Part shown: positions 51,334-63,809 of the stretch, one piece after another
Numbering within the stretch: position 1 is the stretch's first letter
Layout of the letters: the number at the start of each line of letters is the position of its first letter
From: Macrostomum lignano
Lineage: Eukaryota
Direction of reading: 5' to 3'
DNA length: 64,000 nucleotides
Assembly (NCBI GenBank): GCA_002269645.1
Contig: NIVC01000052.1
Location: 186,001-250,000, forward strand
The notes under the pieces: generated by a model
The model's database searches: none
Told to the model about the DNA's origin: nothing
The model's input: the letters and a program-made list of their open reading frames with translations, nothing else
Position numbers and translations under genes: made by a program

Positions 51334-51355
51334 GCTGACAATGAAGAATTATGAA

Positions 51356-52646
51356 TGTTATGCCGTGGGCTTTCGCCCGAGATAGAACAAGGATTTCCCT
51401 GGGTGGTCGGGTAGGTCTTGATATCCCACCGCTGCCACCAGTGTAATGCTGGTGCCGGATCCCACCAATGTAACCAATGTAATGGCCTTGTGGATCCCCG
51501 TCTCTTTGGTGATTACTGCTGTTGCCTACTACTTCCTCTGTCTGTCCTCGCTATCTAGCACGGCCGGTAGCTGGCCTGAGTGGTCTAGCTATGGTCCGAA
51601 TTAACCCCTCTTAGTCTCCACTGAGTATAGTTAGATAATAACCGAGTATTGGTAGTTGGGTTGCTGCCACCTTGTAGGGCTACCGGTGATATCCTCGACA
51701 GGTTACCCCTAGGTAGGCCTACTGATAAGTAGAAATTAAATAAGACAAACAAGTCAGTTAAACGCTTATTAATGTGAGTAACGGTCACAGGCCGATCCTA
51801 AAATATCGTTTAATAGCTCAACTGGTGTCGCAGTAACAAGTCCCAACCCTATTAGGTGTCACTGATGTTGCCCAACAGCGTAGGTTGTAGGCCACGAGAC
51901 CAGGTCCAGACGGTGTCGAAGGTCTGGCGAGCTGATGACACAAAGACCTGCGGCAGTCTTAATGAGCAAATGGCAGCTGCAACAAGGATTTGTTAGCAGG
52001 TTATCCCTAGGAAAAGCGTCTAGCGATCTGCCTAAGCTAGTTCGTCTAGGAAAAGCGTCTAGGAATACTAGCCTTTGCTCGAAGCCAAGCAGGCGGTCTC
52101 CGAGAGGAAGATCGTCTCTTTGGGCCTTCACCTACTCTGTATTTATACTAAAATTCGGGGGTCTCAGGGCCAATGGGAAGCTCAGAGGCAGTTCCGTGGC
52201 AGATCCCATGGCAGTTCCGTGGACTACCCGGCGCCCGGAGCGATCTTGGAGATGTCCATAAGACATCTGCCTCATCATGCAGCCTCCGCATGGCCTGCTG
52301 GTACACTGCTTGCATGTTGCCGCATGCAAGGAGTGCAACCAAGACCCCACGAGATCCTACCCGGGCGGAGAGCTATGCTCTCACTCCCGCTGACTAAATA
52401 AGCCTGTACTAAGGGAGAAATATCCCACTGACTAATGTTTCTATTTTTAGCCCATTGCAGACTGCGCCAGGGGGAGAGGGGGAGAGATTTCTCTCCCTGT
52501 CCCGCGACAGCTGCACACCTGAGCCTGCACAAGGAAGAAGGGGAAGGGACAGCCCTATGCCCAGCTCCCACTGCTGCAGCCCAAGCACTAACTGACTAAG
52601 GGGGGATCCCAGGAGCAGCCTATGCTAGCTATGCTGGATCACCACA
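51356..52646 (-). repeat. 3' LTR (1291 bp), with candidate TATAAAT (52147-52141) and ATTAAA (~51814-51809) on the element strand
   Basis: Direct repeat of 59216-60507. Confidence 0.97.
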
Positions 52647-52660
52647 CCCACCCCACCTGA
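52647..52660 (-). promoter_or_regulatory. Polypurine tract
   Basis: AGGTGGGGTGGG immediately before the 3' LTR TG. Confidence 0.7.
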
Positions 52661-52853
52661 AAAAGAAGAAGCGACACCAGGAGGTTCTTCATCAAGTAAG
52701 GTAAGTCAATGTATTTAATAAGTCATGTAGGTATCAATTAGAGAAAGGCCATAGGCCAATACACAGAAGCTGATAGTTATAATGAAAGGCCTGAGCCAAT
52801 ACGCCTGTGAGGCCATATGCCCCACGATGAGCTACTGTAGACGAGCGTCTCCG

Positions 52854-55800
52854 TTAATGGGCCGGCCTCGCCGTATTCAGCAGAGCGAGGGCCTCGGCTG
52901 ATAGGGCCGGCATGCGGCCGAGATCTTGAGCTGCTCTGCGTACTGCGGCCTCCAACGCCACGGCGTAATGCCGATATGGCATGAGCAAAGAGCGCGTTCT
53001 CGTGAAGGCTTCGTTGATGAGGGCGCGCCGCTCATCCTCAGCCATAGCCTTTAGTGCAATGGTTTGCGGTGTGGGCCAGGCCGTTATTTCTCCGGTATAC
53101 GCGGCTTTCAGCAGAATGGCCGCGATCATCTGCTTGATGGGCTCCCTGGCCGGCTGCGACTGGCTGCTACAGGCCGTCCCGCCACTGCTGGCCGGTGCCA
53201 CCTTGCTGGGAGGGGAGCGGCTTCGCCCTCCCAGCCTTTCCAAGGCCGTCGGCCGTCCAGCGGGCTGCCAGTTGGCCGCGCGCTGCCGGGAGCGACTCCT
53301 CGATGGTCCTGCCGCTGCCCGGCCTCTGGCCGGGGGCTTCTCCAACAGCGCCGTCTTCCTAGGGGTTGGCTCTGTTTGAGGCCCGGCCACAGCCTGGACG
53401 TTCGTGTCGACTCGCAATAATGTACGGCGGGTAATGCCGATGGGCGCTGTAACCGGCGGGCCAGACGGTATTGGCGTTGGCTTGGTCTTCACCCGCCCTT
53501 CATCGGGACGCGGTGATGATGACTCGATCGGCTCGAAAGAGTCGTTCGAAGCTGACAGAGAGAGCTGCTGCTCTAGAGGCATCTCGTCCTCGCTCATGAT
53601 GGTGCTGGAATGCGGAAAGAAGCGCCTTATTGAAGAGGCGAGCGCATCCCTGATCCTAGCAACATAAGATTTAGCTCTAGGATTCATGATTAGTCTATCT
53701 GGGGCTCGGCGGTCTCTCCGCGGGCGCTCAGCAACAGGCTGAGGGTCCGGGGGCACCGCTTCGGGCTGTTCTATTTCCCTGTGTGCTTCAGGTTGCTCAT
53801 TAACAGCTTCCCCATCCTCATTCATTTCAGGTTCGGCGACTTCTGGGATCGCTGCTAATGCTGCGGCCGGACGCAGAAAGTAGCGCGGAGCCCAGTCATC
53901 ATCGTCGTCATCGAGCTCGTCAACGTCATCGGCGGCTTCGCCGGTATTCTGAGAGGCAGTGGTTTCTAGGGCAACGCGACGCTTATGCGGCGGCCCAGCA
54001 CGGTGCTCAGCTGCCCGGCCAGCCGGCTCTGGATAGTCAGCTTGCGGAACCGGTAGCATATTGCGACGGTGCACCACCAACTCCTCTCGACGAGCCCTAG
54101 GATTCCGGAGGCGAGGTCTGATCTTGTAGACCACTTCTCCTTGCGCTCTACTACTTCATACACAGCCTTGCGTGGTCTGTGAAATTTCTGCGCTTCCCAA
54201 GACTGATCTAAGACTGGATTGTTCAAGAAGACTAGGTCACCCGGTGAGAGCTGCTTGGCCTTCGGGCGATTCTCATAATGTTCATCGCGAAGTTCTTGAT
54301 GCAGCTTCACACGGTCCTGGGCTAACTTATTAGCTTCCTCTAGTCTCTTCTGGAAGTCTTGGACGTACGTTGGCAAGTCCGGATATTCAGGTGGGACCCG
54401 AAGCTCATTATCAATGGGCATCCGGAATTCTCTTCCAAAGACCAAGAAGTAGGGCGTAAACCCTGTAACCGGGTGAACGCTAGATCGCAGAGCGATCATG
54501 CATGCTGGGAGGAAGGTATCCCAATCTTGGTGATTCTTCTCCAGCAAGCACGTGAGTACACTCTTGATTGTCTTGTTGAGATTTTCCACCTGGCCATTCG
54601 AACTAGGATTATACGGCGTTGTAGTCGTGTGCCTAATGCCGTACAGCTCACAAAACTTCTTAAAGTCCTTTCCAGTGAAGTTCGTTCCTTGGTCGGTGTG
54701 CAGCCACGCTGGTACCCCGTACTCCGGAAACAACCTTTCCTGAAGAATCTTGACTACGGTCTTGGTCTTCTGGTTCCGCATAGGGAACGCAAAAGGGTAT
54801 TTTGAAGTAGCATCGCACAGAGTCAGAATATAGCGGTGGCCAGCTCGCGAAGGCTGCGCGATTGGGCCGACAACGTCGCAGTGTAGCCGTCCCATTACTT
54901 CACAGACTGGGAAACTCTGCACGGGCACAGCTTCGCGACGGCGAGTCTTGCTCTCCAGGCAGACTCGACATCGGGCCACGTAGGCCTTAACCGCTTTGCT
55001 CAAAGACGGCCTCCAAAACCTTTGTCTAACCCGAAGATAGGTCTTAGTTTCGCCAAGGTGTCCACTCAAGGGAGCATCATGGAGCTCTTTGAACACCTGG
55101 TCATCTAGACTCTTCGGCAGCACAATGCGCGGTGGACGGTCTGCTATGTCTTCATCGTAGACGAGCAGGTTGTCTACTAGCCGCAACATCTCAAAGTAGC
55201 CTAGTAGGTTGCGCGTATCCCTACTAAGACGTAGTCGGGCGTCAAAGGACGGCTTGGGCGAACTAGTCGCTAAAAGATTTCTGACGAACTCAATGTCCGG
55301 GTCCTTCTGCTGCTCGAGGAGCAGTTGGTCTCGCTTCAGAGATTCGGACAGAAAATCACTAAGCAGAACACGACAGCGTGGAGGAACATCCTCACTAACG
55401 CTACGGTTCGCTGATTCCGTTATTGAAGCAGATAATGGCCTTGCTGCGTCGTCGGTCCGGATTCCTGCGGTCAGGTCACCTGAGACACAAGGGCGCACAG
55501 CTTCTATGGCCGTAGGTGCGGTAGTGTGGCGTCCAACTGGGGCAAAGTCCACAGCTAAACCAGCAACCTTGGCTGCCCATTCTGAGCGGCGGTCCACTGA
55601 GGGACAACATGTCGCATCAGTCTGGCAGACAGCCTCGGACGCTCCAGCCGAACAACGGTTCACTGAGGAACAACATGTTGAGTCGGCAGAAACGGCCGCA
55701 ATAACGGGTGTCGGACATCGGTCCACTGAGGGACAGCATGATGAGCCGGCGACGGCAATACGAGATTCCTGCGAGGCAGAACTGCTGGATGTTACTTGGT

Positions 55801-58232
55801 CGGCGTCTTCGACTAATCGAGGGCTGAGGGTACAGTGGCCTCATTTTCTGTCTGGTTGGGTGTCCGTGCTCCAGGACGACAGTCATCGAACTCCGGACCG
55901 TCCGGCTTTCTTGATAAGCTGTCTGCGTTCTGGTGCAAACTTCCCTTCCGATGAATGACAGCAAAGTCGAATTCACTTAGCCGTTCGACCCAACGACCCA
56001 AGATCCCTTCGGCTTCAGTCTGGCGAATGAGCCAAAGAAGAGCCCTGTGGTCTGTTCTAACCTCAAATCTCTTGCCGATTAAGTAGTAACGAAAGTGCCT
56101 CATCGAGTCAACAACGGCCAAAAGCTCACGCTTGGTGTTGTTGTACCTCGTTTCAGGCTCGCGCAATTTCCGACTAAAATAGGCAACAGGCCGCTCCGCA
56201 CCATCGGATTGGCGCTGGCCTAAACAGGCGCCGATTCGGAAACCTGAGGCATCACAATCCAGGACGAAGACTGTGTCTGGGTCTGTGTTGTACTCTGGGT
56301 ACGCGAGGACCTCAGTAGAGCACAGCTTCTTCTTGAGCTCATCGAAAGCTTTCGAGTGTTGCTCTGTCCAGAGCCCTTGAACCCAACAAGGTTCTTCCGA
56401 GTCAATTGATGCAACGGGGCAGCAATTTCGGCGTAATTCTTGACGAATTTGGCATAGTAGTTACAGAGACCTAGAAAGCTCTGCAGCTGCTTGACTGTCT
56501 GAGGACGCGGCCAGTCTAGTATCTGCTGTACCTTGTCTTCATTAGTCCTAATGCCTCGTCTATCGACTACATGTCCGAGATAGTGCAACTCTGTCTTAAA
56601 CAGATGGCATTTGCGTGGCTTTAGCTTAAGATTGGCTTCAATGAGCCGCCTGAACATTTCGCGAAGATGTTCGAGGTGCTCCTCGAAGGCAATACTATGA
56701 ATGACAATGTCATCCATGTATCCTAAGGCGAACTTAGTGATACCGTCTAGCAGCATATTGATGCATCGCTGGAAGGCTCCAGGGCTATCGCGAAGCCCCA
56801 TAGGCAAGACGTTGAACTCAAACTGACCTCGATTGATCACTGAGAAGGCTGTGCGAAAACGATCCTCTTCACGCAACGGGATCTGATAGAACCCTTGAGC
56901 AAGATCCAAGCTGCTGAACCATTGAGATCCACGGAGACATGCAAACGTCTCCTGGATAGATGGCAACGGATACGGGCGATATTCGCATCTCTCATTCAGC
57001 TCGCGATAGTCATGGACTATGCGGACAGATTTGTCCTTCTTAGGCACTACTAAGATAGGAGAGCTGTAGCTTGAATAAGATGGCCTGATCAAGCCCTTCT
57101 CTAGCATCTCATCTAGCAGCTGATTGACCTGATCTTGCAGGTGCGGGGGGACCCTGCGAGCTGGAATCCTAACTGGAGTCTCGTCCTCGTCCCGCATGAC
57201 GATCTGATGGGTCACCAGGTGAGTCAGACCGTGATCGAGAGTGTGCGTGGAGAACGCATTCCGCGACTCTCTGATCAGCTCACGAACCTGGGACTTCTGG
57301 TCCTCCGTGATCGAATCGCCTATCTCTATCTCATTGATCCAATCGTCACTGGCTGAATTGACGTTATCGTCTAGGTGCAACTTACGCACAGGTGTTGCTT
57401 TCAGTTCTGGATAGTACTCGAGGTCTTGCGTCCGGAGCGGTGTGGCAAGGCCCACCAAGGCTCCTTTGGCTATATTAACTGGAAAGTTGTTAGGATTAAC
57501 AACTTCCATGCAGCCTTTGCCTTCATGCATCGTTACCAATGCTGCAGATGCGCGGACCTGGGAAAGCCCAGCGCGGAGTCCAGATCTGAGTGGTTCAACC
57601 ACTGCTGGCACTCCATAATTCGATTCTTTGCCACGTGCCAGTTGCACAGAAATGAGGCCAGAACTTCGAGCAGGAATCTGATGTTTTCCGGCAACATAGA
57701 CTCTGCAAGAGGTTGGCTCACGGCGCGTATAGCGCACAGGTACACAAGTACCAGTAGTGAGGGTAAGCATTCCTGTCTGGAACTCCAAAGTCCGACAGTG
57801 CTTCCTCATAAAATCAATGCCTAGGAGATTCTCCTGATCGCCGCTTACAATGTAGAATTCAGCTTCAGCTGAGAAATCTCCGAAGACAACATCAAGCATA
57901 ACCTTACCGGTTAGCTGTAATTCAGAACCATCATAGGTTAGAATACGATCGGAATAAGTAGGTGTAACTACGCATGCATGAGCAGTATTACGCGATATCA
58001 ATCGCCAAGTAGAAAGGCCCATCAGGTTCAGTCTGCTCCCGCTGTCGAGAAGCAAGGGGACCTGTTGGCCGAAAATAAGCGCAGTTACATAAGGATCAGC
58101 ACCAGAGTTATATACATTATTTACAAAGGAAGAGTCTACGGTATCGCCAGACTCTCCAGACTGCTTTAGTGCGACTTCGGGGGTTGGCCCTGGAGAGGGT
58201 CCTGGTTGGCAACCCCCGCCCGGACGTTTCCC
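52854..58232 (-). CDS. pol: Pol polyprotein PR-RT-RNaseH-IN plus long C-terminal extension; three apparent single-base frameshifts (~56375, ~55822, ~54140)
   Basis: LLDSGS protease; YPLP, QGFYQI, YMDD RT; DAS/ELLAVV/TDH/NADSLSR RNase H; HDAPLSGH..CRVC zinc finger; CDVVGP/HTDQG/QVE DDE integrase. Confidence 0.93.
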
Positions 58233-59131
58233 GGCTTCTGAGCCTTGAACTTAGGACAGTCAGGCCTCTTGTGGCCTGGTTTACCGCACTCGTGGCACAC
58301 AATGCCTTGCAGCCTATCCCTGGCAGATGCGGCTGGCGTCTGCTTGAGAAGCTGCTCAAGCATCTGCTGCTGCTTCTGCAGGACCTCATTCTGATGCCTG
58401 ATTAGATTTTTAAGCTCATCGTCCTGTCGGGGAACCGTAGCTTTGTCCCCACCAAGGCTGCGACAGGGTGCGTCTTTGCTGCGGGCAGCAAGCTCACGCG
58501 CTGTCTCGATGCGCTTGAAGGCGAACTTGGCGTCCTGTAGAGTCTCTGGACGACCCCAGTACAGCCGTTCTCTGGCCTCAATTGTAGTTCTGACACCTTT
58601 CAGGAACTGATCAACAAGTTCTGATTCGAGCTGAGCTGGCAAGAGATAAGGGTACGCGAGTTCTCCAAGTTCGCGGAGAGCATCTGCGAACTCGTCAATG
58701 TCCTCGTTCTTGCGCTGAGTTCGGCAGCGGAAATCTTCTCGGAATTCCTGTGAGCCGCCTCTCTTTGAGAATCTCTCAATCAGCGCTTCCTTAAACTCTT
58801 CGTACTCCAGATGGTCTGGCAAGTTCAGGCGCAGGACCGAAGCATACGCCGTGTGCACGTCAAGGTTGGCGAGCAACTCCGCCTTCCTGTGGCAGGCACG
58901 AATGTCTTCGGTATCGCAGCGAAGATCGAAGGCTTTGATCCACGTGCGGATGTCTTGGGACGGCGTGTATTTAGCCATCTTGACATGCTGCCTGACTTGG
59001 CCTATACCAAGCTGGCGCTCCAGTGCATCAGCGAGACGATCAAGACGTTCGCCTAGTACCGGTTCCTCAGCTCCTGCTCCAGCACCATCGTCAGGTGGTG
59101 CCATTGAAGCACGACTGCTGGCAATAGACAT
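58166..59131 (-). CDS. gag: Gag, 321 aa, with CCHC zinc knuckle
   Basis: Retrotransposon-gag core (..FRCRTQRKNEDIDEF..L..LAYP) and CHECGKPGHKRPDC. Confidence 0.93.
   Translation of the reverse strand: MSIASSRASMAPPDDGAGAGAEEPVLGERLDRLADALERQLGIGQVRQHVKMAKYTPSQDIRTWIKAFDLRCDTEDIRACHRKAELLANLDVHTAYASVLRLNLPDHLEYEEFKEALIERFSKRGGSQEFREDFRCRTQRKNEDIDEFADALRELGELAYPYLLPAQLESELVDQFLKGVRTTIEARERLYWGRPETLQDAKFAFKRIETARELAARSKDAPCRSLGGDKATVPRQDDELKNLIRHQNEVLQKQQQMLEQLLKQTPAASARDRLQGIVCHECGKPGHKRPDCPKFKAQKPGNVRAGVANQDPLQGQPPKSH
58178..58232 (-). promoter_or_regulatory. -1 programmed ribosomal frameshift signal (gag-pol)
   Basis: G GGA AAC heptamer in gag phase (58232-58226), 7-nt spacer, then 9-bp stem CGGGGGTTG / CAACCCCCG; pol is in the -1 frame. 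Confidence 0.8.
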
Positions 59132-59196
59132 TGCTATGATTACTAAGTGAGACTAAGACGTAGGTGGACGAAGGATTGACGTGGTCGTTTTACCGG

Positions 59197-59214
59197 ATCC
59201 CACCGCTGCCACCA
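59197..59214 (-). promoter_or_regulatory. Primer-binding site complementary to the 3' 18 nt of tRNA-Leu
   Basis: TGGTGGCAGCGGTGGGAT one base inside the 5' LTR; complement ATCCCACCGCTGCCA-CCA is the 3' end of metazoan tRNA-Leu(AAG/UAG). Confidence 0.9.
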
Positions 59215-59215
59215 G

Positions 59216-60507
59216 TGTTATGCCGTGGGCTTTCGCCCGAGATAGAACAAGGATTTCCCTGGGTGGTCGGGTAGGTCTTGATATCCCACCGCTGCCACCA
59301 GTGTAATGCTGGTGCCGGATCCCACCAATGTAACCAATGTAATGGCCTTGTGGATCCCCGTCTCTTTGGTGATTACTGCTGTTGCCTACTACTTCCTCTG
59401 TCTGTCCTCGCTATCTAGCACGGCCGGTAGCTGGCCTGAGTGGTCTAGCTATGGTCCGAATTAACCCCTCTTAGTCTCCACTGAGTATAGTTAGATAATA
59501 ACCGAGTATTGGTAGTTGGGTTGCTGCCACCTTGTAGGGCTACCGGTGATATCCTCGACAGGTTACCCCTAGGTAGGCCTACTGATAAGTAGAAATTAAA
59601 TAAGACAAACAAGTCAGTTAAACGCTTATTAATGTGAGTAACGGTCACAGGCCGATCCTAAAATATCGTTTAATAGCTCAACTGGTGTCGCAGTAACAAG
59701 TCCCAACCCTATTAGGTGTCACTGATGTTGCCCAACAGCGTAGGTTGTAGGCCACGAGACCAGGTCCAGACGGTGTCGAAGGTCTGGCGAGCTGATGACA
59801 CAAAGACCTGCGGCAGTCTTAATGAGCAAATGGCAGCTGCAACAAGGATTTGTTAGCAGGTTATCCCTAGGAAAAGCGTCTAGCGATCTGCCTAAGCTAG
59901 TTCGTCTAGGAAAAGCGTCTAGGAATACTAGCCTTTGCTCGAAGCCAAGCAGGCGGTCTCCGAGAGGAAGATCGTCTCTTTGGGCCTTCACCTACTCTGT
60001 ATTTATACTAAAATTCGGGGGTCTCAGGGCCAATGGGAAGCTCAGAGGCAGTTCCGTGGCAGATCCCATGGCAGTTCCGTGGACTACCCGGCGCCCGGAG
60101 CGATCTTGGAGATGTCCATAAGACATCTGCCTCATCATGCAGCCTCCGCATGGCCTGCTGGTACACTGCTTGCATGTTGCCGCATGCAAGGAGTGCAACC
60201 AAGACCCCACGAGATCCTACCCCGGGCGGAGAGCTATGCTCTCACTCCCGCTGACTAAATAAGCCTGTACTAAGGGAGAAATATCCCACTGACTAATGTT
60301 TCTATTTTTAGCCCATTGCAAACTGCGCCAGGGGGAGAGGGGGAGAGATTTCTCTCCCTGTCCCGCGACAGCTGCACACCTGAGCCTGCACAAGGAAGAA
60401 GGGGAAGGGACAGCCCTATGCCCAGCTCCCACTGCTGCAGCCCAAGCACTAACTGACTAAGGGGGGATCCCAGGAGCAGCCTATGCTAGCTATGCTGGAT
60501 CACCACA
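59216..60507 (-). repeat. 5' LTR (1292 bp)
   Basis: Direct repeat of 51356-52646; by eye only one substitution and one C-run indel differ. Confidence 0.97.
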
Positions 60508-62258
60508 TGAACAATACATACCATCCTGTGACAACAAATACATGTAGCTGTTTCTCATGTTTTGTTTCTAAATTGGAATGCATATGCTTCAATTTATCCG
60601 TTAACATTCTAATCGCTTGTTTTTCAAACAGTTTTTTACTCTATAATTTTATATTTATTTTTTTAGAAAACACTTATCATCTTATCTTTGTTGTACCGTA
60701 GTTTTACATGTACATTCACATGTGAATTCACAAGCGTCCTCCCCTCTAAGGACGACTGAAGTAGGCTCTACAATTAGCGACATCATGCCTGTCTTCATTG
60801 GCTCTGATCTGATAAAGTGATTTACTAGCCAAATTTTTTACAGAGCAGAAAAATTATTGCAGTCTTAATAAGAATAACGTCACTGAATAAGTAGATATAT
60901 TTAAATGAAACAATATAAAGCGTTCTTTTACCGGTTGTATTAATGCTAACTAAAACAAAATACATGAATGCAGACAGTAAGCTTGCATTAAAATTGCAAT
61001 TTTTGTTTTTAATATATAAACTTTCAATAAACTTTGTTTTATATAGATGAAATTGGATAAGAAACTTTAAATAAATTTTTATTACCACCTTTAAAGGTGA
61101 AAGTTTCGTAGAACTAACTGATCTCTACCTATAAGTGGACGTGGTACAACTTACGAGGTTAAGTTGAGTTGAGTTGAGTTAAGGTAAAAATGAAGGTTGA
61201 CTTTAAGATGTTGAATTTTATTTTACATGCTTTTTGTTTTTACGAATGTATTGGCCCCAAAGTTCACTTACAGTAAGCGAACAAAAATTATAGGTAATCA
61301 AATCAAGTTCTATAAAATTAATAAACATTTTAAATCTCAGACTTACATTCAAAGCTAAAAGATTAATATTACAAACGTTATTTTTTTCCAAATCTTTGTT
61401 CATAAGCGCATTAATTTTGTTCTAGCCGTCTCATCTACAATATTGCGATTGAAATTTAATTTTTAATGCTTTAAATAAAATGCAAATCGTGTTTTGTATT
61501 TCTTTTACACTATAAATAAAGTTTAAGATAAAGCAAATTATGTACCTTTGGAATTTATTTCTAATTCTATGTATTTTTAAATACATATAAGTCAGACAGT
61601 TTGCTCTAACTAAATAAAGTAGAATTTTTAGTCTATTAATTTACAACCAGAATTCTTCTTTTCAATGCCATCTTTAGAGAGTTACTTTGAATATTTATAG
61701 CTGAACGTTTTGATGCTTGATTTCATCTTTTCTTAAAATATAGAAATGCTGCCTTTGACTTTAGGAACAAAGTTTTTAGTAATAGACATTTTAGACTTAG
61801 GAAAATAAGTTCTATAAACAAAATACTGTTTTATTAGGCAGTGGGATAGCCAGGAGTTTGCCTTGCTGGGCAAGAGTGTAAAAGGCAAGATTTTAGCTTT
61901 CAAACTTGTCTACCTACTATCACTTTTTTGTTGAAAATTGCAAAAATTAACATTCAAAGTTTATGGCTGGTTGTCTGAGGGGGGGTCTGAAACTGAAAAC
62001 TTAAACATTAATGTAAAGGACATTATTTCTCTAAGAAAAAATATAGGAATTCATACAATAAGCTTTTATGTTAAGTTTTACTCAACCTTTTTGTCTCACT
62101 GACTTCTAGAACTTTCTATTCCTGTACTCGTATGATAATTTCAGCACAGACTGGTCGCAAACCAGATGGTCATGGCAACATGACAGAGAGATGCAGTGGC
62201 TGCAATAGAATTTTAAAAGTAAAAAATTCAGTTCTCAAATAGACTACTAAGCCAAAGT

Positions 62259-63809
62259 ATGGACAATGTTGACCTCGAACTGACACCAGACCTACTTGAG
62301 CAGCAGCAAATTCCTCTAAGCGCCATCAGCCAAACCCTGCTTTTGTTGCTGAAGCCATTGGAAGATGCAACAACGCGAATTGTCACAGTTGATGGGGTGG
62401 AGCTGCTGGACAATTTACAGGGACTGGCCGAACTGCTAATTTTCAAAGGTGAGATGTGTTGTATTGAGTTGAACTTTTGCCATTAGTATGCTATTGCAGT
62501 GCAAGTCTGTCTCCAAATTGTACTTTATGTGCATGGGCCACCACAATAGTTATCCTTTGACAGGATCCTAAAGACAACGCAATTGAGCTTGAATCTAGTA
62601 AACTACCCGAAGAAGCAACCATGCCCTAAGAATCTAAGAAGACCCCAAGCTACCCTAAGAATCGACCCCAAGCTACCCTAAGAATTGACCCCAAGCTACC
62701 CTAAGAATCGACCCCAAGCTACCCTAAGAATTGACCCCAAGCTACCCTAAGAATCGACCTAAAACTACCCTAAGAATCGACCCCAAGCTACCCAAAGAAT
62801 CGACCCCAAGCTACTCTAAGAATCGACACCAAGCTACCCTAAGAATCGACCCCAAGCTACCCTAAGAATTGACCCCAAGCTACCCTAAGAATCGACCCCA
62901 AACTACCCTAAGAATCGACCCCAAGCTACCCTAAGAATCGACCCCAAGCTACCCTAAGAATCGACCCCAAGCTACCCTAAGAATCGACACCAAGCTACCC
63001 TAAGAATCGACACCAAGCTACCCTAAGAATCGACCCAAGCTACCCTAACTAACATTAACCTAACCCTATAAAACCAGGCTGCGTCACCGACTGGGGTCTG
63101 GCTGGTACGGCCTCGGTTAGCGCGGTGCTTGACACCTGGGGCCGGCAGGATCAGCGCGCTAGCTGTGCCGTCCTGTGGCGCCTGCTGGTGTCCCTCGGCC
63201 GGTTCGATTTGCTGCGCAGCATCCGCGGCCGCCTGCTGAGAGACGCGGAGCTGTACATGCAGAGCGAGCAGCGGGAGCGGCGGCGGCTGCGGGAGGCCAC
63301 ACAACAGCCGTCAGCCGCTCCCGAGCGGCGCTTTGACGTCTATGTGAGCTACTCCGAGACCTCGCAGGAGGACTCAGCGAGGGCGGCCGAGATTGTGGCC
63401 CGGCTGCGGGACAGCGGCTTCGATGTCATCAGCGCCGAGGACCGGCTGGCCGGTGGCTTCTCGCTGGACGAATTTCACGATATTGTGCGCCGGTGAGAGA
63501 GAGAAGCGTGTTTTGGCGGCCTGAGGTTATAAATGCAATTGAGTCACTGAGTCACTCCAACGCAGGTGCAGCCGGGTGCTGGTGCTGTGGTCCCGGGCCT
63601 ACGAGGCGGAGCCAGAGCTGCGCTACGAGCTTAGCCTCTCCCGCTCCATGGACCCGGCCGCCGATCGGCGTCGAGTGATCCCCGTCCTGCTGGACGACAC
63701 GCAGCGGCCCGGCCACCTGATCGGCATCCGGGCTGTTCGATTCGGCAGCCGCAACTGCATTCAGCAGCTTGTCAACTCTTTGAGAGATGGAAATGGACGG
63801 CGTAGCTGA
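62259..63809 (+). CDS. MYD88: MyD88-like adaptor (death domain + TIR), 282 aa, 3 exons (62259-62448, 63078-63492, 63566-63809)
   Basis: Death domain IPLSAIS...LQGLAELLIF...VLDTW...LWRLLVSLGRFDLL; TIR box 1 FDVYVSY, RCSRVLVLWS, RRVIPVLLD; splice phases 1 and 2 match. Confidence 0.85.
62640..63047. repeat. 23-nt minisatellite (GACCCCAAGCTACCCTAAGAATC)n in MyD88-like intron 1
   Basis: Direct inspection. Confidence 0.95.

Follow-up and report, generated by a model that had tools for sequence, protein, structure and literature searches.

The ends of long terminal repeats (LTRs) and their neighbouring primer binding site (PBS) are usually treated as fixed. In Drosophila, 412 reportedly has LTRs of two lengths that differ by about 90 bp, and priming inside the LTR has been discussed for mdg1; if that is correct, the two-end phenomenon described here has a single-family precedent and is the less novel for it. 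Engineered two-PBS vectors (Voronin and Pathak 2004, by title) reportedly showed dual initiation, and the likeness to the present locus would lie in initiation at either of two sites. A literature search, whose coverage did not extend to older subscription literature, returned no description of natural PBS-bearing modules at LTR ends.

Among the described systems, a bipartite PBS that contacts the tRNA D-arm is known for yeast Ty3 (PMC5371799), and a 5'/3' PBS pair for Drosophila gypsy (PMC1635307). Both resemble the element studied here in having more than one tRNA-binding stretch per element. In these two systems the second site is close to the RNA 3' end and, in the available portions of these two papers, is not reported to set another LTR end. 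The present family differs in that a full 18-nt PBS stands behind a used CA end, in the predicted U5 and in variable number. A bipartite PBS of the Ty3/gypsy type has its second tRNA site in U3, whereas the inner PBS here is 86 bp from the U5 end and about 370 nt past a candidate poly(A) signal, from which the R/U5 border is predicted. HIV-1 revertants with multiple PBSs appeared in culture by PBS duplication during reverse transcription (PMC1084362), as is proposed here. These are laboratory products of forced primer change, whereas the modules reported below are natural and inherited, carry a regenerated integration end and occur in several lineages. The Helenus/Ajax TRIMp3 elements share tRNA-related sequence inside the LTR and, in some families, a tRNA-Leu PBS and a 4-bp target site duplication (TSD) (PMC10886601). 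They are non-coding, unlike our element, which has gag and pol, and their tRNA-like part is a proposed promoter without PBS complementarity.

Ty3/gypsy (Ty3/Mdg4) LTR retrotransposons, the superfamily of our element, have been described from Macrostomum lignano (PMC12801592), and a protein named for this species (P0002) is 65% identical to the reverse transcriptase (RT) of our element and 83-100% identical to sister-lineage loci. The main text of that paper contains no occurrence of PBS, primer binding or tRNA, and four motifs are absent from 76,578 text characters of its supplement 5. Nothing on such modules was found in the available portions of PMC3601003, PMC10886601 and PMC12801592.

The window element and its terminal module

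The window (the whole 64-kb stretch of M. lignano DNA that was analysed) contains a young element on the minus strand at 51356-60507. It is an ordinary Ty3/gypsy member, with direct LTRs that have TG...CA ends, a TSD, a PBS, a polypurine tract (PPT) and Pfam matches in the Ty3/gypsy pol order (RVT_1, RT_RNaseH, Integrase_H2C2, rve). Its features are as follows.

59216..60507, minus: 5' LTR, TG...CA, 1292 bp, by sequence comparison
51356..52646, minus: 3' LTR, 1291 bp, one substitution and one indel relative to the 5' LTR
51352..51355, unstranded: left TSD copy, 4 bp, matches the right copy
60508..60511, unstranded: right TSD copy, 4 bp, matches the left copy
52647..52657, minus: PPT
59197..59214, minus: terminal PBS next to the leader, fully complementary to the 3' 18 nt of tRNA-Leu
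58166..59152, minus: gag frame, with weak Retrotrans_gag and zf-CCHC matches, both below the curated cut-off
56220..58250, minus: pol piece 1, RT and a protease-like motif (motif seen in the translation)
55813..56460, minus: pol piece 2, RNase H, different frame
53966..55840, minus: pol piece 3, integrase, different frame
52854..54155, minus: open frame of 433 codons, 3' of the integrase, no Pfam match
60002..60007, minus: candidate TATA box, LTR position 501
59669..59674, minus: candidate poly(A) signal ATTAAA, LTR position 834

The pol region (53966-58250, minus) is spread over three overlapping frames despite almost identical LTRs, and the frameshifts may be real breaks or base errors. The 433-codon frame (52854-54155, minus) is acidic and then proline/arginine-rich, either an integrase tail or a third ORF. 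Dense minisatellite and microsatellite arrays with unit lengths of 8-33 bp fill most of the window (2000-50700 and 62500-63100).

Each LTR closes with 86 bp made up of one spacer base, an exact 18-nt tRNA-Leu PBS and a 67-nt linker with the outer CA at its end. This anatomy is read directly from both LTRs, and the candidate TATA and poly(A) signals would put the module in U5.

59216..59301, minus: 86-bp module at the end of the 5' LTR (spacer base, then PBS, then 67-nt linker with the outer CA)
51356..51441, minus: 86-bp terminal module of the 3' LTR
59283..59300, minus: inner PBS of the 5' LTR, 18/18
51423..51440, minus: inner PBS of the 3' LTR, 18/18
59302..59309, minus: inner LTR terminus; five TSD-verified relatives are integrated at the corresponding end
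59262..59282, minus: linker head of the 5' LTR, common to several lineages, with predicted hairpin pairing to the PBS
51402..51422, minus: linker head of the 3' LTR, by LTR identity
59315..59345, minus: two decayed earlier junctions of the 5' LTR, CA ends followed by a truncated or internally deleted PBS
51455..51485, minus: two decayed earlier junctions of the 3' LTR

The repeated junction had been pointed out in an earlier note on this DNA, and its sequence comparisons hold: 59283-59309 and 51423-51449 match the true junction at 59197-59223 in 26 of 27 positions, and the 18-mer of the true PBS (59197-59214) recurs at 59283-59300 and 51423-51440. The third, partial PBS copy that it named is a 12-mer at 51455-51466, also present at 59315-59326 within the relics at 59315-59345, and matches 59193-59204. 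A TG/CA-type end does lie at 59302, 86 bp inside the outer end, and the PBS is indeed carried in the 3' LTR and in solo LTRs. The PBS exactly complements the 3' 18 nt (CCA added) of the host tRNA-Leu(AAG/TAG), and all 12 fetched loci were called tRNA-Leu. The genome holds 666 exact copies of the 18-mer and none of a reversed control, so that the copies are not due to chance.

Could the duplication have been made by the assembler? The assembly does contain duplicated loci (C1967/C3017, C255/C2712, C3314, C1849), and the frameshifted pol may reflect base errors. Against this, the module occurs at many independent insertion sites, with exact TSDs at dozens of independent flanks, and the possibility of an artefact raised in the earlier note is thereby answered. 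Four public runs gave contigs over the region. One contig spans 58900-59280 (leader, true PBS, outer end and linker), placing the linker beside the terminal PBS, and a loose contig end from an independent run has the window insertion's own flank at the outer terminus. Both PBSs in full were spanned by none of the contigs listed from independent public runs. A contig joint at 59222-59383, ambiguous and with a 23-nt side, was not counted towards the short form. An artefactual duplication is already largely refuted and is exceedingly improbable.

Length classes and modules in other lineages

LTRs of the window family were gathered by DNA search (at least 52 matches, from 40 scored of 286 candidates) and again by an anchor pattern (39 matches). 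An insertion was taken as verified when both outer flanks and an exact 4-bp TSD were present, and loci with identical flanks were merged. The resulting 23 insertions fall into directly observed length classes with zero (5), one (17) or two modules (1). Those that end at the inner terminus are the full-length element C1746 and the solo LTRs C3106, C3314, C755 and C1407; the two-module insertion is solo C2378. The inner terminus had been called false in the earlier note, which these five insertions correct: it is a used integration end. Seven loci that were truncated or without a partner LTR were left out (C2657, C616, C13, C2303, C173, C1414 and C251), and C616, C2657 and C13, for which a 3' LTR was not found, were excluded from the 5'/3' counts. 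All terminal PBSs read in this family are exact.

A tree of 26 LTR cores was built with one row per insertion and the module region excluded. The five short-LTR rows require five changes on it, which rules out a single clade of short LTRs, and module states as a whole require eight changes compared with 7.6 for shuffled labels, so no clustering is seen. C1746, with no module, and C2303, with one, are near-identical neighbours. The prediction of LTRs 86 bp shorter was thus borne out in that there are two terminus classes, each with its own TSD, but the short LTRs do not form a sub-family. Since module number is scattered over the tree, the short form is a recurrent switch, although LTR recombination can itself scatter the module label.

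Searching for the PBS end together with the linker head gave about 300 genome matches. Among the examples fetched, lineage B and a related group, C/D/E, carry a module of this kind. The RTs of B and of C/D/E are 60-68% identical to that of the window element, and their LTRs gave no alignment with the window LTR at E 1e-4. As C, D and E are close in pol, three deep lineages carry the module. It has the form of a PBS, a 45-68-nt linker and a CA end, and its tail finishes with the lineage's own terminal sequence. In the sister group, 60 stretches were reduced to 39 elements after dropping 13 without a 3' LTR, five duplicates and three tandem arrays. With both ends read (5'/3'), 24 have no module, nine are 1/1 (including C1020, scored by eye), four are 2/2, one is 4/4 and one is 1/0. 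C550 has a second, variant module, seen by eye.

Other tRNA-Leu-primed families, known from short stretches only, have inner or relic PBSs with different linkers (L066 from C246, L128, L131, L133, L145 and L147); these linkers are A/T-rich and do not fold on the PBS. No match was found in viral contigs. Metagenomes gave three loci of a different element in one marine assembly (L083, L084, L085). L084, an insertion of 359 bp with TG...CA ends and a 4-bp TSD, consists of a short repeat and five PBS-linker-CA units, and is a similar architecture in a different element. In L084, and also in L083 and L085, the terminal repeat is short and nearly palindromic, with similar stacking in another organism.

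Whole elements with LTRs in common also occur as tandem arrays (C255, C1903, C3668 and C4250), and L200, L203 and L215 are arrays of this sort. C255 (L003-L005, L016) has four LTRs within one TSD, its last unit being shorter. The repeat unit of a tandem LTR array comprises an internal region, a PPT and a whole LTR. The module has neither PPT nor U3 and is therefore not an LTR-internal-LTR unit.

How module number may change

The LTR 3' end of these elements is a stackable module (PBS, linker and new CA end) present in zero to four copies among relatives, and insertion has taken place at inner and outer ends alike. We consider it probable that module number changes during reverse transcription. 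How modules are gained and lost we infer from sequence comparison. The LTR end would be set by whichever PBS the tRNA primes. The leader-adjacent site would be primed about nine times in ten, and priming at the inner PBS would give shorter LTRs and leave the module behind in the leader. With its PBS repeated, the element could pair out of register at the second strand transfer, or jump between co-packaged RNAs, adding or deleting a module. A new module would form if a tRNA-copied plus-strand end fell back onto U5 and restored a CA end; with such births U5 would grow by accretion, and old junctions would decay into relics.

Possible traces of slip-back are present. C251 has three 35-bp units (PBS plus 17 nt), with a joint in short homology between the PBS end and U5, as would be expected of a tRNA-copied plus-strand end slipping back onto U5, and the relics at 59315-59345 resemble what such an event would leave after decay. 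The earlier idea that the LTR grew by capturing its own junction stands insofar as U5 has been extended by repeated PBS-junction pieces (these relics, and three 35-bp units in L046). The captured piece, however, is not simply the element's own leader, since the linker is common to other lineages. A plain copy of the leader was rejected as the source of the module, the match being weak (p=0.04 by base shuffles).

In lineage D, where 59 junctions less eight presumed duplicates left 51, 12 have an exact leader-adjacent PBS and 39 an imperfect one, in most cases through one common 2-nt insertion (examples are L158, L164, L166 and L176, in the first 300 bases of the element strand). The inner PBSs detected there are exact in 27 of 29 cases (Fisher P 8e-10, an overstated value since the copies are related and are not independent events). 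Lineages B and C have other 2-nt PBS insertions at a similar place. Imperfect PBSs are common in active mouse endogenous retroviruses (ERVs) (PMC7472051), and tRNA sequence is not normally inherited in the Ty1/Ty3 transfer model (PMC5371799). The imperfect leader-adjacent site suggests either selection for imperfection or a tRNA copy that is not inherited. Exact inner and imperfect terminal sites would fit tRNA-copied inner and RNA-inherited terminal PBSs, and the modules of lineage D would then fit rescued tRNA-copy ends. This argument from bulged PBSs does not apply to the window family, because its terminal sites are exact. The lineage D leader is also joined to at least two U5 types (L160, L166, L170 and L176 versus L156 and L159), which suggests LTR swapping between sub-families.

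Pooling the lineages gave 32 non-tandem elements with modules in which each end was read (15 + 6 + 3, plus 8 of the window family), and module number is equal at both ends in 28 of them, the outcome that priming at the leader-adjacent PBS would give. Asymmetric elements are observed directly. An extra module is present at the 5' end only in C1967 (2/1, LTR identity 99.75%), C163 (1/0, 99.9%) and C2478 (1/0), all with matching TSDs, and this is the product expected of inner-PBS priming. The inner-site priming put forward in the earlier note fits these three elements but is not proven by them. C206 is reversed, with one module at the 5' end, two at the 3' end and an intact TSD. The same elements may be explained if the inner PBS never primes and module number shifts by template switching between co-packaged RNAs with zero, one or two modules, the repeated PBS being the crossover point. 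C163 has near-identical relatives with zero and one module (1-2 differences in 996 bp), so that its asymmetry could come from a mixed particle without inner priming, and the U5 tails of C511 differ between its two ends (6 differences), which implies mixing of templates; C511 and C206 require mixing or loss. These cases indicate that exchange between co-packaged RNAs happens and could account for all four asymmetric elements. The many equal ends also agree with recombination alone, and a local hairpin could block the inner site. Nevertheless, C2478 has a module at its 5' end only although its LTRs are 100% identical over 983 bp, the asymmetry runs 3 to 1 in the inner-priming direction (too few cases to test), and the inner site, which follows a used CA end, is an 18-mer without mismatch. 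Recombination without inner priming is accordingly the whole explanation only at modest odds, and we think it unlikely. Stacks of unlike modules (C616, C224, C659, C981 and C1545) require exchange between different templates. That stacked modules are often unlike in sequence speaks against post-insertion change, whether through slippage of host replication or through unequal crossing-over of tandem PBS-bounded units, as does the fact that both LTRs of one element are usually equal in number, including 2/2 and 4/4. Moreover, solo LTRs stop exactly at the inner CA and continue into the TSD, which deletion between PBS copies cannot yield at the 3' end. The units are short direct repeats, and C206 and the identical double modules (C1967, C2378 and C1140) could have arisen in this way, yet as a general account post-insertion change is very doubtful.

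The linker may itself have a function. A common linker head is a direct observation: over its first 24 nt, identity is 62-75% for the window lineage compared with the others and 79-88% for B compared with C/D, whereas in the neighbouring U5 and leader it is near the alignment background. This conservation may be due to selection or to transfer between lineages. Under selection at the RNA level, the linker would give the terminal PBS another contact with the tRNA, at the D-arm, or the spare PBS would catch primer tRNA or absorb 3' tRNA fragments, with length switching as a side effect. The conserved head is complementary to tRNA-Leu nt 7-12 and 18-22, the hairpin loop bases are unchanged in 21 of 21 linker variants, and in mouse ERVs a proposed role of imperfect working PBSs is to escape tRNA fragments (PMC7472051). 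Predicted complementarity to the tRNA-Leu D-arm has z of about -1 to -2.8 in the sister lineages, but in the window family it is no better than in shuffles (z about 0). The 24 of 39 sister-group elements without a module insert well, and an additional exact PBS in the RNA would be expected to draw silencing. RNA-level selection as the main cause is thus quite improbable. In 51-nt folds the linker pairs back on the PBS with z of -2.5, -2.7, -2.7 and -1.3 for four modules, compared with about 0 at two terminal PBSs. Across 21 variants, 99.1% of stem cells are paired and 12 of 14 stem changes keep the pair, counts that carry little weight because the PBS side does not vary and a transition leaves a wobble pair in any case. 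In longer folds (330-550 nt) opening the inner PBS costs more than opening the terminal one in only 10 of 16 comparisons, so hiding of the inner PBS is not established and strong silencing by the hairpin was rejected as not robust. The difference in opening cost (inner minus terminal, -2.0 to +2.5 kcal/mol) is not uniformly positive, a counterpoint to the priming mechanism that we favour.

A further stretch complementary to tRNA-Leu, from nt 1 to about 31, lies in U5.

59426..59447, minus: U5 box of the 5' LTR, score 37, 1/200 shuffles
51566..51587, minus: U5 box of the 3' LTR

The box is exact in 42 of 46 family matches and could be a second tRNA contact or a fossil over-copy of the primer. 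It resembles the linker, and we speculate that both came from over-copying of the primer past the normal stop; read-through past this stop with reduced m1A58 has been described for HIV-1 (PMC8599865). A tRNA 5'-half box was not found outside the module in the LTRs of lineages B, C and D.

Implications for LTR ends

A tentative reading, for which we hold limited expectation, is that the module is a minimal hitch-hiking piece of about 65-85 bp, without promoter or coding part, which moves between distant tRNA-Leu-primed lineages by template switching at the common PBS and rebuilds the lineage-specific integration end. If so, the module would parasitise LTR ends, and LTR length would be set by the choice of primer site.

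The roughly 300 PBS-plus-linker matches and the 666 exact PBS 18-mers come from overlapping, not nested, patterns and are inflated by duplicated loci; they imply that a large share of the tRNA-Leu PBSs of the genome may sit in LTRs, including solo LTRs. For annotation, read-through RNA of such LTRs could hypothetically be primed or targeted by tRNA fragments.

One genome preserves the intermediates: zero to four modules, asymmetric copies, mixed stacks and decayed relics. The process that we favour, with module number changing during reverse transcription, would let U5 both lengthen and shorten, and the family would offer a natural system for studying the choice between competing primer sites and the inheritance of a tRNA-copied PBS.
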